Source of the DNA: Rhodospirillales bacterium
GTDB taxonomy: Bacteria; Pseudomonadota; Alphaproteobacteria; Rhodospirillales; UBA2165
Direction of reading: 5' to 3'
DNA length: 64,000 nucleotides
Assembly (NCBI GenBank): GCA_046582495.1
Contig: JAYGEG010000099.1
Span: 1,858 to 65,857, forward strand
Below, one piece after another: positions 53,422 through 59,187 of this stretch. A model generated the notes under the pieces. It was not told where the DNA came from and searched no databases. It saw only the letters and a list, made by a program, of their open reading frames with translations. Each line of letters begins with the position of its first letter. Positions within the stretch are counted from its first letter, which is position 1. The translations under genes were made by a program, and so were the position numbers.

Positions 53422-54855
53422 ATGATTGAAGACTTTCTCAATTTTATCGAAGGACCGGCACGCTGGACCATCACCGCCCTGGCGCTGATGGTGTTTTTGT
53501 TTCTCGTCGCCCGCCGCAAATCCTCACGCCGCAAATTGTTTGAGCCGACTGCCAAACCTTCCGACATCATCGTTAAATGGGGCAAGCAGGCTGGCGGCCA
53601 AATTCCGATTGAACCCTGGATGGACAACCCAGAGATCAATGCTGTCATGGAGGCGATCACCAAAAACGGTAAAGAAGCCCGCTTTATTGGCGGCTGCGTC
53701 CGCGATTCCATCTTAAAACGGCCGGTCAAAGATGTTGATATAGCGACCCAGGAGACACCTGATCAGGTCACGCAATTGCTCGAAGAGGCAGGTATAAAAG
53801 CTGTCCCCATCGGCATAGAACACGGCACGATTATGGCGGTAATCAATCACAAAAGCTTTGAGATCACCTCGCTTAGAAAAGATATTAAGACCGATGGTCG
53901 CCATGCGGTTGTCAAATTTACCGATGATTGGCGGCAAGATGCGGCCCGGCGCGATTTCACTTTCAACACGTTGAGCGCAACACCCGACGGCATGGTGTTT
54001 GACTATTTTAACGGCATCCAGGATCTCGCCGATCGGGTGATCTGATTTGTCGGCCGCGCGCCTGAGCGGATCGCGGAAGATCGCCTTAGAATTTTGCGCT
54101 ACTTTCGCTTTATCGCCACCCTTGGCATGCGGGTTGAAAGCAAAACGGAGTTCCAAGCCTGTATTGATAAAGCGGGTGACCTAAAAGAGCTTTCTGCCGA
54201 ACGCATTCGATCCGAGCTTTTCAAAATTCTCGCTTCCACGATGCATCTCGACGTCATTGCGTTGATGTATACCCACGGCATCCTCAAAGTTATCCTGCCC
54301 CACGTCACCAAACCTGAGCGGTTGCGTCAATTGGCCTGGCTGGAAACCGTCGCGATTAAGTTCGATATGATCGGCATTGATCCGATCCGCCGTCTGGCCG
54401 CCTTGGTTGAGACGGATGAGAACGGGGTGACGGATATAACGGATGCCTTGAAACTTTCGAAAGCCGAGCAAAAACGATTGGCCTCGATGGTCGCACCACA
54501 AATAGAAATCACCTGGGACATAAGCGACAACGATCTACGCGCCGCCTTTCATCAAGTGGGCGCCGAGACGGTCATCGATCTGGTACTGCTCAAATGGGCA
54601 GAGATGCTCGTCGCCTCACCAACCGGGCTCGGCGAGGAAAAACAAGGCTGGCTTCATATCATTGAAGAAGCGGACCGGGTTTTGGCAGAAGAGAAAATCA
54701 GTTTTCCACTCAAAGGCCAGGACGTGCTCAATCTCGGCATCGAACCCGGCCCGGAGGTTTCCCAATTGCTGGATCAAGTTGAGCAGTGGTGGATGCTGGA
54801 AGGTTGCCGCGCTGATCACGCATTGTGTTTTGATAAACTAAAAACGCTCCTCTAA
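53422..54855 (+). pseudogene. cca: CCA tRNA nucleotidyltransferase interrupted by an in-frame TGA at 54043-54045
   Basis: FIGGCVRD, DVDIAT, DAARRDFTFN, then VI*FVGRAPERIAEDRLRILRYFRF, LSAERIRSELFKIL; ORFs 53422 and 54094 share a frame. Confidence 0.85.
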
Positions 54856-54871
54856 AGATATATTATGTGTT

Positions 54872-54992
54872 CCCTCAATCGCCGGGCGCTTACGCCGTAA
54901 GCTTGGCTACGCCGCATAAGCGACGACCCGCAGTCGCGGGCTTAGAGGATGTATTCCCTCTCCCCTGGAGGGAGAGTGTTAGGGTGAGGGGG
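54872..54992 (+). repeat. Structured repeat copy 1 (70-bp core plus CCCTCTCCC..GGGAGAG..AGGGTGAGGG REP-like hairpin)
   Basis: 54872-54941 matches the reverse complement of 57298-57367 at 64/70 (hand alignment). Confidence 0.9.
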
Positions 54993-55034
54993 AAACACCC
55001 AATTTAGCTGAATTTATTCTGCCCTTACCTCCAA

Positions 55035-55062
55035 TATTGTCCTCTCAATCGCCGGGCGCTTA
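55035..55062 (+). repeat. Partial repeat copy 2
   Basis: TATTGTCCTCTCAATCGCCGGGCGCTTA matches the outer end of copies 1 and 3. Confidence 0.85.
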
Positions 55063-56709
55063 TCCGACCACCGCGCCAGCGATCCCTTCGGCGCATTTAT
55101 CAGTGATGAGGAAGCCGCATTGTGGGTGGCGGATGAAACGCGCGACAACGACCCCTTCGGCGCTTTCATAAGTGATGCCGATCTTGCATCATTTATGTCC
55201 AATGAAGATGAACATGCCGAGGAATTCTCGAGTGTCGGCTCCCTCGACGGGAACACATCAGGGCTCGGCACCTCGGCGACCGACACAGGATATTTAGGCG
55301 ATGCGTTCCAGAGTTTTGCCGATGACATTGCAGGCATGTCTGTCGGTGAATTTGAAAGCGAGTGGAATTCAGGGGCAACACCTTCCTCAGCACCCTCTGG
55401 TTCTTCTACAGAATTTGGCATTTCGGATGGTATCGATCCGGGTGCGCTGATGGGCAGTTCCGCTACCGAAACTCTCTCTGATGCCGAGAAAGGCGCGGCC
55501 ATCACCGCCGCGGTCGAGGCGCAAATGGCCGACGGTACGGCTGCGCGCGCCGAGCAAGCGATTGGCGGTGCGATCAATATTGGTGCAGGATATCCCAGCG
55601 CTGATCCGGCAAGTGCCGCGATGACAGCTTACGGCACCTCAATCGATCCCTGGGGCGGACCAAATTCAACAAGCGATACAACAAGCGCTGTCGCAACCGG
55701 CACCTCCGGCGCCAGTTTCAACGGCATGAGCACCAGTGGCATGGGTATGGGCATGGCCGGCCATGGACGACGAAGCCGCAGACCTCAGCTCGGCCATCTT
55801 CGGTGCACACAATGAAATGTTCGGAAACTCGTTAGGAGAACAAAACGACAACATTGGCGGTAATTTACTTGGCAGCGAGACCAATACATATACAGGCAAA
55901 ACCGTTAGTTCGGTAAGGGCGACAACATCGACATGGGCGACGAAACAGGAGGAGCCGGAGATGAATGCTTCACCGGCGACACGCCGATCCTGATGGCGGA
56001 TGGCACGGAAATGCCGATCGAATATGTTCAGGCGGGCGACAAAATTGCCTCCTTTTCGGGGCTCGGCCAACTCGTCCCGCAGACCGTATTGGAAAATTTA
56101 ATTTCGAGCCGTCGTCGTCTGATCAACATTGATGGCGTGCGTGTCACGCCGCCGCACCCATTTTTGTGCTCAAATGGCAAATGGCTGTTTGCCCGCGAAA
56201 TCGAGCCTGGCATGGAGCTCATCAAAGCCGACGGCTCTATCTATTAGGTCAGATCGGTGTTCGCCGATGGCTATGGCAGCACGGTCTACAATCTCGAAGT
56301 CGATGGCGGTGATTGTTTTATCGCCGGCGGCTTTCGCGTTCACAACTCGACCATCATCTGCGCTGAACTGCATCGCCAAGGCTGGTTCAGCGATGCGGAA
56401 TGGGACATTGAGCGACGCTATTCACGCTACGAAAATCCGTTTCGCGGCTATGGCGAAGACTGGGATAGCGTCAGCCACATCTACCGTCTCATCGCCGAGC
56501 CACTGATTGCACTCTCCCGGCGGGCGCCGATGACGTTTGGCCGCGCGCTTGCAGGCTTGATCCGGCCCTGGATCACCGAGCTTGGCTACCGTTATGCCGG
56601 CTGGCCCAAAGGCCACATTCTCGGCCATCTCGCGATGAAATACGGCACACCGATTATCCGCTTTCTGTGGGGCATAAAAGTTAAGTCGCCGGAGAAAGCG
56701 AATGCTTAA
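55063..56709 (+). pseudogene. Acidic Ser/Gly/Ala-rich protein with intein-like Hint domain and C-terminal IICAELHRQG domain; 5'-truncated, two frameshifts, one amber
   Basis: ORFs 55120, 55736, 55933 and 56257 join via +1 (near 55762), -1 (near 55909) and TAG (56245); Hint 55966-56346: CFTGDTPILMADG...VTPPHPF...VYNLEV...RVHN/S. Confidence 0.85.
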
Positions 56710-57238
56710 AGATATTACCGGCCGGGAGTTTGACGACGAGCTGACCGATTTTTTACGCTGGTTCACCCGCCATCACGGCGAAATCACGGTGCCGGCCAAC
56801 GACGCCATGAGTTTTGTCGGCGGCCATGCGGGTCTGGTCATCTTCAGACGCGGCCAGTTCCAGGTGCAACTCTTTACCGGTGGGCCCAACCTCAACATAC
56901 CGGATCACACACATCCCAACGTCGATTCCTACGAGGTGTTTCTCTACGGCATGCTGTTCACGCTCGAGGGCAAAAGCATAGCGCCGAATGAAAAGGAGAT
57001 GCTGCGCGGCACCCGCGTCTTGCCATGGGACACCTCGGCGCCCTTGCATGCTTATAAATGCATTCGGGTTTTGCCGAACAACAAACATGGCGGCGTGGTG
57101 AGCTCTAAAGGCGGTGCGTTTCTGTCTGTCCAGCAGTGGCTCAATGGCGTCAAGCCGACTTGTGTGACGACCGATTGGGACGGTGAACATATCGACGCCG
57201 GGCATAAAGCTCGCCAGCACGCGGTCGCCGGGAGATAA
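56702..57238 (+). CDS. Cupin-fold hypothetical protein
   Basis: FQVQLF..PN..IPDHTHPNVDSYEV...HGG...GAFLSVQQW; overlaps the upstream stop (translational coupling). Confidence 0.7.
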   Translation: MLKDITGREFDDELTDFLRWFTRHHGEITVPANDAMSFVGGHAGLVIFRRGQFQVQLFTGGPNLNIPDHTHPNVDSYEVFLYGMLFTLEGKSIAPNEKEMLRGTRVLPWDTSAPLHAYKCIRVLPNNKHGGVVSSKGGAFLSVQQWLNGVKPTCVTTDWDGEHIDAGHKARQHAVAGR

Positions 57239-57261
57239 ATGTAAATGAAATTAGTAACCCA

Positions 57262-57375
57262 CCCCTCATCCAACCCTCTCTCATCAAGGGACAGGACGCC
57301 TGCGACTGCAGGTCGCCGCTTATGCGGCGCAGCCAAGCTTACGGAGTAAGCGCCCGGCGTTTGAGGGGACAATAA
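57262..57375 (-). repeat. Structured repeat copy 3 (inverted relative to copy 1)
   Basis: Core 57298-57367 plus degenerate REP-like CCCCTCATCCAACCCTCTC at 57262. Confidence 0.9.
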
Positions 57376-57388
57376 AAAGGAACCAGTT

Positions 57389-57754
57389 GTGAACTCACCA
57401 GACCAAAAGACCAATAACATCGATTATGACCGAGCTTTTGTACCGTCTTTTAAAGCCGGGCTCGGACGGCTCAACTCATCGGAACAGCAATATCTCAAAC
57501 ATCTCATCACCCCCGAGGCTGCCTTTCTTATGGCTAAAGCGTTCGGCCCCGATATGGGCGTGATGTTATGGCCTTTCATCGCCGAAGACACCCCCAAGGC
57601 TTGGGCGATGATCGGAAAAATAGCCCGGCTGAGGATTGACATGGCCTCAGCCCGCTATTCGGCCGCCTGCAATTCTGGGGCTCTCCCCGGGCTCCATACC
57701 AAAACGGGATTGCGGGCGGCTTTGGTTTCATCAAGGCGGCGGCGCGGCGTATAA
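57389..57754 (+). CDS. Small hypothetical protein; 3' end doubtful (runs 100 nt into gcvPB)
   Basis: AAGGAA RBS plus GTG; protein-like core LGRLNSSEQQYLKHLITPEAAFLMAKAFGP. Confidence 0.5.
   Translation: MNSPDQKTNNIDYDRAFVPSFKAGLGRLNSSEQQYLKHLITPEAAFLMAKAFGPDMGVMLWPFIAEDTPKAWAMIGKIARLRIDMASARYSAACNSGALPGLHTKTGLRAALVSSRRRRGV
57616..57658 (-). terminator. Terminator of the gcv operon
   Basis: GGCTGAGG-N10-CCTCAGCC stem right after the gcvPB stop, with AAAAA on its left (U tail on minus strand). Confidence 0.7.
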
Positions 57755-59187
57755 CGCGGTGCCGCCTTGAAATCCTGCGTATTGCCCGACTGTGCCTTCT
57801 CCGCCAAAGCGCGGATCACATCAACAAATTCGTCGAGCGTTTCTTTGCCTTCGGTTTCTGTCGGCTCCATCAAAAGCGCGCCATGAACAACCAGCGGAAA
57901 ATACATCGTCATCGGATGGAAACCTTCATCGATCATCGCTTTGGCAAAATCGAGGGTCGTCACATCGGTGTCTTTGAGAAATCGATCATCGAACAAAACT
58001 TCATGCATGCACGGGCCGTCATAGGACACGGTTAGAAGATCGCTGAGCTTGGCCATCAGATAATTGGCATTGAGCACCGCATCGCTGGAAGCTTGGCGCA
58101 GGCCATCGCTGCCCATCGACAGCATATAAGAGAGCGCCCTGACAAAGACGCCGAACTGACCGTGGAAACCTTTCATGCGTCCGTAGGGTTTTGCATCACT
58201 GGAAAACTCGGCGGCATCGTCTGCCTGCTCGATGAGATCGAAGCCGTCTTTACCGTGCACGACATAGGGAAGCGGCGCGAATGCGGCGAGCGCCTCTGAC
58301 AAGACAACCGGGCCTGCGCCGGGGCCACCGCCGCCATGCGGTGTCGAGAACGTCTTGTGAAGATTAAGATGCATCGCATCAATGCCGAGATCGCCGGGAC
58401 GTACGCGGCCAACAATGGCGTTGAAATTCGCGCCATCGCAATAAACCAAACCGCCAATATCATGGACGGCTTTGGTCATCTCGATAATTTCATCTTCGAA
58501 CAAACCGCAGGTGTTGGGATTGGTCACCATGATTGCCGCAACATCATCGCCGAGCTTGCCTTTGAGCGCGGCTAAATCAACCCGGCCCTGATCGGTCGCC
58601 GGAATGGTTTCGACCTGATAGCCACACATATGCGCACTTGCGGGATTTGTGCCATGCGCTGATTCCGGTACAAGAACGCGGGACCGGGCATCGCCTCTGG
58701 CTTCAAGCGCCGCCCGAATGCTCATCAAGCCGCAAAGTTCACCATGCGCACCCGCAGCAGGCGACATCGCAATCGCCGGCATTCCGGTCAATGTCTTTAG
58801 CCAGTGCGCCGTCATATCCATCAGCTCAAAGGCACCTTGAACGGTCGATTTCGGCTGCAATGGGTGAATGTCGGCAAGGCCGGGCAAGCGCGCCATCTTC
58901 TCGTTGAGACGCGGATTGTGCTTCATCGTGCAGGAGCCGAGCGGATACAGCCCGCCATCAATGGCAAAGTTCTTTTGGCTCAGACGCAGATAGTGGCGAA
59001 CGACTTGCGGCTCCGAGAGGCCGGGCAGGCCAATGGGATTTTTACGCGCCGCATTACCGAGCCGGCTTTCTACATTTGTGATTTCATGAGGATTGGGTAA
59101 ATCAACCGCCGTCATGCCGGGTGAGTTTAGTTCAAAGATCAGCTTTTCTTCGAGTTGAAGACCTCTATTTCCGGTGACTGTACTCAT
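57655..59187 (-). CDS. gcvPB: Glycine dehydrogenase subunit 2
   Basis: YPLGSCTMKHNP, AHGTNPASA, HLNLHKTFSTPHGGGGPG, EPTETE. Confidence 0.97.
   Translation of the reverse strand: MSTVTGNRGLQLEEKLIFELNSPGMTAVDLPNPHEITNVESRLGNAARKNPIGLPGLSEPQVVRHYLRLSQKNFAIDGGLYPLGSCTMKHNPRLNEKMARLPGLADIHPLQPKSTVQGAFELMDMTAHWLKTLTGMPAIAMSPAAGAHGELCGLMSIRAALEARGDARSRVLVPESAHGTNPASAHMCGYQVETIPATDQGRVDLAALKGKLGDDVAAIMVTNPNTCGLFEDEIIEMTKAVHDIGGLVYCDGANFNAIVGRVRPGDLGIDAMHLNLHKTFSTPHGGGGPGAGPVVLSEALAAFAPLPYVVHGKDGFDLIEQADDAAEFSSDAKPYGRMKGFHGQFGVFVRALSYMLSMGSDGLRQASSDAVLNANYLMAKLSDLLTVSYDGPCMHEVLFDDRFLKDTDVTTLDFAKAMIDEGFHPMTMYFPLVVHGALLMEPTETEGKETLDEFVDVIRALAEKAQSGNTQDFKAAPRYTPRRRLDETKAARNPVLVWSPGRAPELQAAE

Follow-up and report, generated by a model that had tools for sequence, protein, structure and literature searches.

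We analyzed a 64,000-nt stretch of DNA from a Rhodospirillales bacterium (assembly GCA_046582495.1, contig JAYGEG010000099.1, positions 1,858 to 65,857; hereafter the window), which carries a 2.5-kb island between the gene of the CCA-adding enzyme (cca), ending at position 54855, and the convergently oriented gcvPB gene (57655-59187, minus strand). The plus strand of the island contains, in succession, a low-complexity reading frame, a 127-codon Hint domain, a 120-codon C-terminal region and a 178-codon open reading frame (ORF). The Hint domain occupies positions 55966-56346 and is followed directly by the C-terminal region, referred to here as the C-extein or C-domain (56347-56706). Together with an N-terminal flank of 11 residues (MGDETGGAGDE), they constitute a 258-codon ORF (55933-56709), which is interrupted in the window by an in-frame TAG codon (56245-56247) at codon 94 of the 127 Hint codons. 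The Hint gene is present in a single copy in this genome, whose completeness is 95.8%.

The nucleotide sequence confirmed the coordinates and the residues assigned to the Hint domain in the initial annotation of this DNA, including the TAG at 56245. The domain opens with CFTGDTPILMADG, the codon of the first residue (Cys1) being TGC at 55966-55968. Block B reads VTPPHPF (with its His at 56155-56157) and block F reads VYNLEV; the domain ends with VHN (56338-56346; His-Asn at 56341-56346), which agrees with the His-Asn end of type A BILs resembling block G of inteins, and Ser+1 follows at 56347-56349. The full set of catalytic residues expected of a self-processing domain is present, as had been proposed, and four of them (C12, H75, H137 and N138 in the numbering of P0004, a 258-aa uninterrupted database protein 99% identical to the window sequence) are invariant in all eight aligned sequences. 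The domain contains no homing endonuclease, since 127 residues leave no space for one, which bears out another element of the annotation.

For comparison with protein family models, the window protein was scored with X at the TAG position. The Pfam model Vint (PF14623) was matched with an E value of 6.6e-12 and 46 bits (cut-off 27), and the 24-residue NCBIfam model TIGR01443 (intein_Cterm) with 18.4 bits (cut-off 15.6). For PT-HINT (PF07591; cut-off 27.7) the window copy obtained 27.3 bits, i.e. 0.4 under the cut-off, which was passed by its two intact orthologues (34.2 and 30.4 bits) and by a phage homolog, L008 (28.8 bits), all three of which are described below. Two models of inteins were failed, namely Intein_splicing (PF14890; 18.2 bits for the window copy and 18.2-22.7 overall, with a cut-off of 35.8) and TIGR01445 (intein_Nterm; 17.4 bits, cut-off 24.5).

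A profile built from eight sequences containing both the Hint and the C-domain was used to search the PDB. The best match was 2LWY, a bacterial intein-like (BIL) domain of C. thermocellum (E 2.2e-18), followed by 8W20 (E 4.5e-15), 6Y75 (BIL2; E 3.5e-12) and RecA mini-inteins (from E 5e-12). We also obtained an AlphaFold2 (AF2) model of the uninterrupted 258-aa natural allele, with a predicted local distance difference test score (pLDDT) of 75.4 overall and of approximately 75-96 in the Hint blocks. This model, compared with the PDB using Foldseek, retrieved 6Y75 (E 1e-10) and 2LWY (template modeling score, TM, 0.85; root mean square deviation 2.1 Å; 25% identity), and after these BILs the mini-inteins of DnaB, RecA and DnaE (e.g. 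4O1R, E 2e-9, TM 0.79). There were 63 PDB matches at E≤0.001, and among the matches listed (approximately 45) all were BIL, intein, Hedgehog or Vint structures. The predicted model superposes on mini-inteins and BILs across the entire Hint part.

The match to Hint is far above chance. In both its fold and its catalytic residues the domain belongs to the Hint superfamily, the nearest described kind being the type A BIL or pretoxin Hint. The suggestion of an undescribed auto-processing module, made in the initial annotation, does not hold for this domain, which is an ordinary Hint of the BIL-type-A/PT-HINT kind according to the PT-HINT scores of the intact orthologues and the best solved matches. 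BIL and PT-HINT domains preceding C-terminal modules are well known, and the Hint itself adds little to what has been described.

A rival explanation is that the domain is a true class 1 mini-intein, a selfish element that has lost its endonuclease and whose precise self-splicing would give the ordinary linker-plus-C-domain protein of Hint-less relatives. It draws on the TIGR01443 match above the cut-off, on the close fold neighbors recovered with Foldseek, and on Cys1, TxxH, His-Asn and Ser+1, which are kept in all four close sequences. These points are opposed by the Intein_splicing and TIGR01445 scores, well below their thresholds, by the BIL domains, which outscore every intein, and by block F, where Asn is found at the position usually occupied by Asp in splicing inteins. 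The flanking sequences, considered further below, also bear on this explanation.

The C-extein is a 120-residue, all-helical region that starts with STIICAELHRQGW. It matched no Pfam or NCBIfam family and no named toxin, in agreement with the earlier statement that it was not a recognizable toxin. Relatives were found in proteins, viruses and bacterial genomes. A search of 1.84 billion clustered proteins yielded 71 representatives at E≤1e-3, in which the match runs from the residue equivalent to Ser+1 to near the C-terminus. The strict motif [IVLM][IVLM]CxELxx[QH] occurs in 59 of these 71, and in 55 of the 59 it is preceded by a stretch without a Hint C-terminus, mostly rich in Gly, Ser or Asp; a Hint end (..HN) precedes it in the other four. 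An alignment of 32 sequences showed seven invariant positions (C5, E7, L8, Q11, Y46, A50 and G93).

The AF2 model of the C-domain consists of five helices and has a pLDDT of 85.4 and a predicted TM of 0.75. No convincing solved counterpart was detected: the PDB sequence profile gave no match at E≤10, Foldseek gave none against the PDB at E≤0.001, and the best Z score in a wide VIA-align search was 4.4, results which do not imply that the fold is novel. Among viral models (BFVD), the domain matched uncharacterized phage proteins, including a DUF4815 protein, that are probably homologs. Its neighbors in the ESM Atlas, which we treat as a lead only, were mostly viral hypothetical proteins.

The proteins carrying the C-domain are diverse. 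Those scanned against Pfam include (i) three proteins with cell-wall hydrolase N-termini and one with a phage tail lysozyme N-terminus, (ii) a giant protein with RHS, SpvB, TcdB and PT-HINT domains (P0069), one further RHS protein (P0076) and an RTX protein (P0074), and (iii) an ART-PolyVal polyvalent protein (P0084) and carriers of InlB B-repeats or DUF4815. Small proteins consisting of the domain by itself also occur, some of which have a transmembrane helix and some not. Judging from these comparisons, the C-domain appears to be a conserved all-helical module of approximately 115 residues which lacks a family annotation and was previously undescribed. At the level of listings and abstracts, we found no paper on this domain, or on a Hint preceding it, in the literature on BILs, pretoxin-HINT domains, polyvalent proteins, phage ejection and HMO-2011. 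What is known is the placement of BIL/PT-HINT domains before C-terminal modules; what is new is the C-terminal domain, with its association with phages, and the fact that a Hint has been paired with it repeatedly. A widespread C-terminal domain is in this way defined, with a confident five-helix predicted model and no solved look-alike.

The association with phages is evident from the viral loci. A scan of IMG/VR revealed 47 of them, encoding 41 distinct proteins, and the domain is located at the C-terminus of the ORF in every case. The only Pfam match in these proteins is the Hint of L008, and the other 46 loci are Hint-less. Together with the 55 motif carriers mentioned above, they show that Hint-less forms of the kind envisaged in the initial annotation are numerous, a Gly-rich linker being joined directly to xIC(T/A/S)ELxRQG. 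Of the viral copies, L008 is also the one nearest to the window C-domain (62% identity), and it has the same Hint with Ser+1.

PHROG annotation, which covered 13 viral loci (L008 and 12 more), identified portal, adaptor, head-closure, DNA-ejection, internal-virion and tail-fiber genes as neighbors. The gene carrying the domain lies directly after the portal gene in L019, two genes after the portal gene in L008 (between the portal and major-head genes), between the head-tail adaptor Ad3 and head closure Hc3 genes, near a DNA-ejection gene, in L035, after an internal-virion-protein-like gene in L022, and after tail-fiber genes in L012. The N-terminal part of the carrier resembles a DNA ejection protein in L048 and an injection transglycosylase in L018. 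Among cultured phages, the domain forms the end (RVICTELYKQG...) of gp49 of Puniceispirillum phage HMO-2011, a 762-aa hypothetical protein whose gene lies in the interval separating the portal-like gp51 from the coat gene, and it ends a 616-aa protein encoded among the fiber genes of a Synechococcus myovirus. Both were found with a typical family member (P0028) as the query; the window C-extein itself gave no match in a tblastn search of the phage collection. The domain is a marker of proteins encoded in the virion and ejection blocks of phages, among them the cultured, ocean-abundant type represented by HMO-2011; RHS, RTX and polyvalent proteins end in it as well. The setting of the 21 loci in bacterial genomes is mixed, some being prophage-like and others not.

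The Hint is placed exactly at the boundary between the linker and the C-domain, two residues ahead of the motif IIC. Ser+1 is present in all four of the closest sequences (the window and P0004, the orthologues in G007 and G003, and the phage protein L008/P0005), and P0006, which has the same architecture and 45% identity, has Ala+1. In a second group of proteins combining a Hint with the C-domain, the Hints are only 25-28% identical to that of the window. Their junctions are HN|KG-IICTEL (P0045, P0056, P0080 and P0085) and HN|RDGDGGDGGT-LICTEL (P0087), and a further junction, HN|IIQNGF-ISHEL, follows two tandem Hints in P0055. Unrelated C-flanks follow the nearest Hints outside the orthologous group (37-45% identity), which have T, V, K, E, V and K at position +1, so that the +1 residue among related Hints is overall A, K, R, I, T, V or E. 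Since the Hints of the second group are so divergent and their junctions non-nucleophilic, a Hint and the C-domain were brought together on more than one occasion, with no nucleophile at +1.

The N-terminal flank is a Gly/Asp/Ser-rich, hypervariable linker, which past residue ~132 cannot be aligned even from one orthologue to the other. A search of the collected proteins, limited by its word index, revealed no Hint-less protein sharing the N-terminal part, and residues 1-135 of the orthologue P0003, used as a query against proteins of 417-1329 aa, returned only P0003. As the initial annotation had noted, the host is not a replication enzyme.

These flanks return us to the mini-intein explanation. 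In its favor, the excision product (...GGAGDE-STIICAEL) would resemble the junctions of Hint-less proteins (GGGT-IICSEL, WASST-VICTEL), and the motif of the C-domain that is most conserved starts only 2-3 residues after the insertion point. It is opposed by the nature of the N-flank, a hypervariable linker that offers no conserved host site, by the occurrence of the same type of Hint before unrelated C-flanks with a non-nucleophilic +1 residue, by the Ala+1 of P0006, and by the failure of searches of limited reach to find a Hint-less protein with the same N-terminal part. We consider a selfish mini-intein an unlikely explanation. The sequences are better read as the modular recruitment of a BIL-type Hint before the C-domain on at least two occasions than as the spread of an intein in one conserved host site. 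The repeated placement of a Hint at this boundary offers a natural experiment on what would require phage or toxin proteins to shed this domain.

Some proteins encountered in this comparison have unusual Hint arrangements. In P0039 there are three Hints in a row or more, probably four, each passing by HN|KGGG straight into the Cys1 of the next, and then a Tim44-like domain. The two Hints of P0055 precede a Cys-to-Ser variant of the C-domain. Two loci of related alphaproteobacteria (L004 in G031:C48 and L005 in G018:C2) have open frames of approximately 2,560 and 2,725 residues; their Hints, with the junctions HN|V and HN|K, are 37-42% identical to the window Hint and are followed by VVLDLDGDG-type repeats, and they are ordinary BILs of large secreted proteins.

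Intact homologs of the window gene, for which the initial annotation had proposed a search, are present in two congeners (G007 and G003). These orthologues of 826 and 759 aa occupy the same locus between gcvPB and cca and show 72-77% identity to the window sequence over the Hint and the C-domain. The window copy begins at approximately residue 134 of the orthologues; their conserved N-terminal domain of 132 residues (the first ~130 residues) was not found in the window or anywhere else in the genome. The part that remains may be divided into three segments: (i) a low-complexity remnant of the N-terminal part in frame 1 (55066-55757, plus strand), which aligns with residues 134-229 of P0003 (E 1e-9), (ii) a linker segment in frame 2 (55760-55993, plus strand; stop codon at 55991-55993), which runs into the beginning of the Hint ORF, read in the other frame, and aligns with residues 324-378 of P0003 (E 8e-9), and (iii) the 258-codon ORF. 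The change from frame 1 to frame 2 coincides with an extra base at 55757, and the return to frame 1 occurs after the frame-1 stop (55906-55908) but no later than the frame-2 stop, i.e. within 55909-55993.

The state of these lesions in wild populations was examined by placing on the locus the assembled contigs of four marine metagenome runs (X1, X2, X4 and X5) originating from four studies. In all four runs each spanning contig has exactly one gap, at 55757, and no other indel. The base at 55757 is thus an assembly error or a strain-private change, since it is missing from all the runs, and the second frame break is common to the four assemblies, since 55757 is the only gap. At position 56246, A is replaced by G in runs X1, X2 and X5, which gives TGG (Trp); TAG is kept in X4. 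The database protein P0004 also has Trp at this position. The TAG codon is a strain or population polymorphism, i.e. a nonsense allele that segregates among marine populations in the wild, and single in-frame stops in metagenome-assembled genomes need not be fixed. When the TAG is read through, the 258-codon ORF is regained but not the whole gene. The initial annotation was right to report this stop codon, but it is not the sole lesion, given the extra base, the second frame break and the loss of approximately 130 N-terminal residues.

Among the single-base changes found in the remnant, 10 of 14 alter the protein, which, with such small numbers, fits relaxed constraint. The window gene is a decaying, pseudogene-like remnant, truncated at the 5′ end, broken in frame and carrying a nonsense allele in some strains. 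At best, a 258-residue ORF comprising the Hint and its cargo survives in this species. Two other explanations of the interrupted frame were rejected. A programmed -1 frameshift joining the frame-2 N-terminal part to the Hint ORF is unlikely, as 55880-55993 contains no slippery heptamer of the form X XXY YYZ and the orthologues are single ORFs. Reassignment of the TAG codon was ruled out because other strains read TGG and the neighboring genes are open under translation table 11.

The ORF following the Hint gene (56702-57238, plus strand) encodes a putative cupin-fold protein of 178 aa with the motif HxH...E...H; there is an 8-nt overlap between its start and the end of the Hint gene, stop codon included. 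It is 36% identical (E 2e-36) to the ORF located downstream of the G003 orthologue. Such ORFs occur in two of 41 genomes (that of the window and G003), always just after the Hint gene, and none follows the intact Hint gene of G007. The nearest Atlas clusters are those of viral cupins (score 0.97, TM 0.75-0.80), 84-100% of whose members are viral; the ORF was not found in the collected viral loci. The intact metal-binding motif suggests an enzyme.

The position of the cupin ORF raises the possibility of a polymorphic-toxin pair, in which the C-domain would be an antibacterial toxin released by a pretoxin Hint and the overlapping ORF would encode the immunity protein. PT-HINT is indeed a hallmark pretoxin domain, the C-domain ends the RHS/SpvB/TcdB/PT-HINT protein P0069, the RHS protein P0076 and the RTX protein P0074, and the cupin ORF, besides overlapping the stop codon, recurs in a fast-diverged form after the G003 orthologue. 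Several observations speak against such a pair: the intact Hint gene of G007 has no cupin ORF, the cupin is nearest to viral cupins and its metal motif points to an enzyme, scans of the N-terminal parts revealed no domain for secretion or trafficking, and most members of the C-domain family are encoded in structural modules of phages, with downstream genes that are structural (e.g. head closure Hc3). We regard a toxin-immunity pair as improbable. Because of the viral-type cupin clusters and the absence of the ORF after the G007 gene, a phage-derived two-gene remnant is favored over it.

Taken as a whole, the feature is probably a release module of the type A BIL/PT-HINT kind, situated at the boundary between a linker and the C-domain, within an accessory gene of phage origin that is undergoing decay in this species. 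On the basis of the conserved residues and the chemistry of the family, Cys1 would attack the preceding peptide bond, forming a thioester by an N-S acyl shift, and the terminal Asn would cyclize, cutting the bond to Ser+1. The C-terminal module would in this way be released from its carrier; ligation of the flanks, should Ser+1 attack the thioester, might be a minor or alternative outcome. Self-cleaving release is the probable main outcome, and efficient splicing appears considerably less likely. The released module would be a cargo or effector-like domain, chiefly of tailed phages, carried at the C-terminus of proteins of the virion/ejection block and occasionally on bacterial RHS, RTX and polyvalent-protein scaffolds. 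As a guess, the benefit of release may be that the module can act apart from its bulky carrier, which would fit delivered phage effectors and the autoproteolysis of polyvalent proteins described in PMC5512222.

Several observations weigh against this release-module reading. As given above, the window copy falls just short of the PT-HINT cut-off. Ser+1 is kept in all four close sequences, although BILs are by definition devoid of a +1 nucleophile, and the domain may still be tuned to splicing. There are no phage genes beside the bacterial orthologues, which, like the window gene, stand alone between gcvPB and cca, and the N-terminal domain of the orthologues matches nothing else among the collected proteins or in the search of proteins of 417-1329 aa. 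The putative link of the window clade to phages is provided by a single viral contig, L008, together with the neighboring cupin of viral type, and the tentative label of effector for the cargo domain derives from its architecture.

The window Hint may be compared with several known systems. It resembles type A BILs (2LWY of C. thermocellum and 6Y75, BIL2 of Tetrahymena BUBL) in being a Hint of approximately 130 residues with an N-terminal Cys, TxxH and His-Asn, in lacking an endonuclease, and in having variable flanks and no single conserved host site. According to PMC4031507, BILs are defined as lacking a +1 nucleophile, and those of type A have His-Asn, can splice and mostly cleave; the window clade differs from the BILs so described in its Ser+1. 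It is also unlike them in that its C-flank is a specific conserved domain, and the closest viral copy lies in a block of phage head genes. As in PT-HINT pretoxins (of the RHS, CdiA and MafB types), a Hint of the window type directly precedes a C-terminal module, and the same module follows a PT-HINT in P0069; unlike in these pretoxins, no secretion-related N-terminal domain or convincing immunity gene was found at the loci studied, and most carriers of the C-module are Hint-less proteins of phage virion modules. Class 1 mini-inteins (Npu and Ssp DnaB, Mtu RecA) share with the window domain Cys1, the block B His, His-Asn, Ser+1 and a close predicted fold. They differ in that the intein hidden Markov models, except that of a short C-terminal motif, remain below threshold for the window domain, its host is no conserved enzyme, it is inserted where a linker meets a domain, and its relatives tolerate any +1 residue.

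The carriers of the C-domain can also be compared with phage proteins that transport effectors in the head or during ejection. As described in PMC5512222, MuF-fusion and polyvalent phage proteins contain delivered effector domains that are released autoproteolytically by zincin-like peptidases. The genes studied here resemble those of such carriers in their position next to the portal gene (L008, L019 and HMO-2011 gp49), the variability of the carrier proteins, the presence of ART-PolyVal in P0084 and the idea that a domain is set free by autoproteolysis. They differ from the proteins treated in that source in that no MuF domain was detected in them, release would be by a Hint instead of a zincin-like peptidase, and their delivery into the host is putative. 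HMO-2011 gp49 has the same C-terminal domain after a long low-complexity region; unlike the window gene, it is without a Hint, and its N-terminal part has no detectable similarity to that of the window gene.

A broader scheme, which goes beyond the release module and which we put forward as possible though doubtful, would link all these occurrences. The xICTELHRQG module of approximately 115 residues would be a cargo packed by tailed phages into their particles and delivered to the host, and it would have been borrowed for bacterial RHS and RTX weapons. The Hint would have been recruited independently by several lineages, precisely at the N-terminal edge of the module, as a release switch that might be triggered by thiols or unfolding and would act only after delivery, and the chromosomal copies of these marine genomes of the Rhodospirillaceae type would be captured phage genes at various stages of decay.

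The island is framed by an inverted repeat of 74 nt, whose left arm (54868-54941) is 91% complementary to the right arm (57298-57371). It is a copy of a dispersed repeat of approximately 72 nt resembling repetitive extragenic palindromic (REP) sequences or miniature inverted-repeat transposable elements (MITEs), and the sequence of the left arm has approximately 6-9 copies on other contigs of the genome. Many unrelated metagenome contigs start or stop at this arm. A second short dispersed repeat of approximately 40 nt (54956-54995) has 6-7 copies in the genome, and many short contig pieces were placed at 54953-54995 in all four runs. A partial third copy of the flanking repeat (55035-55062), which is 93% complementary to 57347-57374, adjoins the 5′ truncation point of the gene remnant; the frame-1 reading that can be aligned with the orthologues starts directly after it. 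In run X5, one low-depth contig (depth 2.2) joins position 55133 to 57307, skipping 2,173 bases, with 28 letters on its shorter side. This joint is probably a repeat-mediated or foreign contig end; a rare island-free allele is the less likely alternative.

The neighborhood of cca varies within the genus, since extra genes are present in G007 and G003 and cca has other neighbors in G008 and G001. At the intact loci (L006 in G007 and L007 in G003), an additional ORF of 193 or 208 aa, absent from the window, is located upstream of the Hint gene, and a 100-aa zinc-ribbon-like membrane protein, also absent from the window, is encoded upstream in G007. The cca gene of the window contains an in-frame TGA (54043-54045), which divides it into ORFs 53422-54045 and 54094-54855; three congeners have Arg at this position (..DRVI*FVGRAPERI.. 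versus ..DRVIRFVG..). It is the second single-base nonsense change, of the transition type, within 2.2 kb of the TAG at 56245, and may be a strain allele or an artefact of the assembly or consensus.

On the opposite side of the island, beside the 3′ end of gcvPB, we identified a conserved small ORF of approximately 70 residues (57389-57610, plus strand), containing ..YDRAFVPSFKAGLGRL..YLKHLITPEAAFLMAKAFGPDMG... An ORF of 121 aa predicted here, which extends into gcvPB, is probably overlong. The small ORF is present in five of the 41 related genomes, two of which are without the Hint gene, and it shows only a weak PHROG match (phrog_6738, E 0.005).

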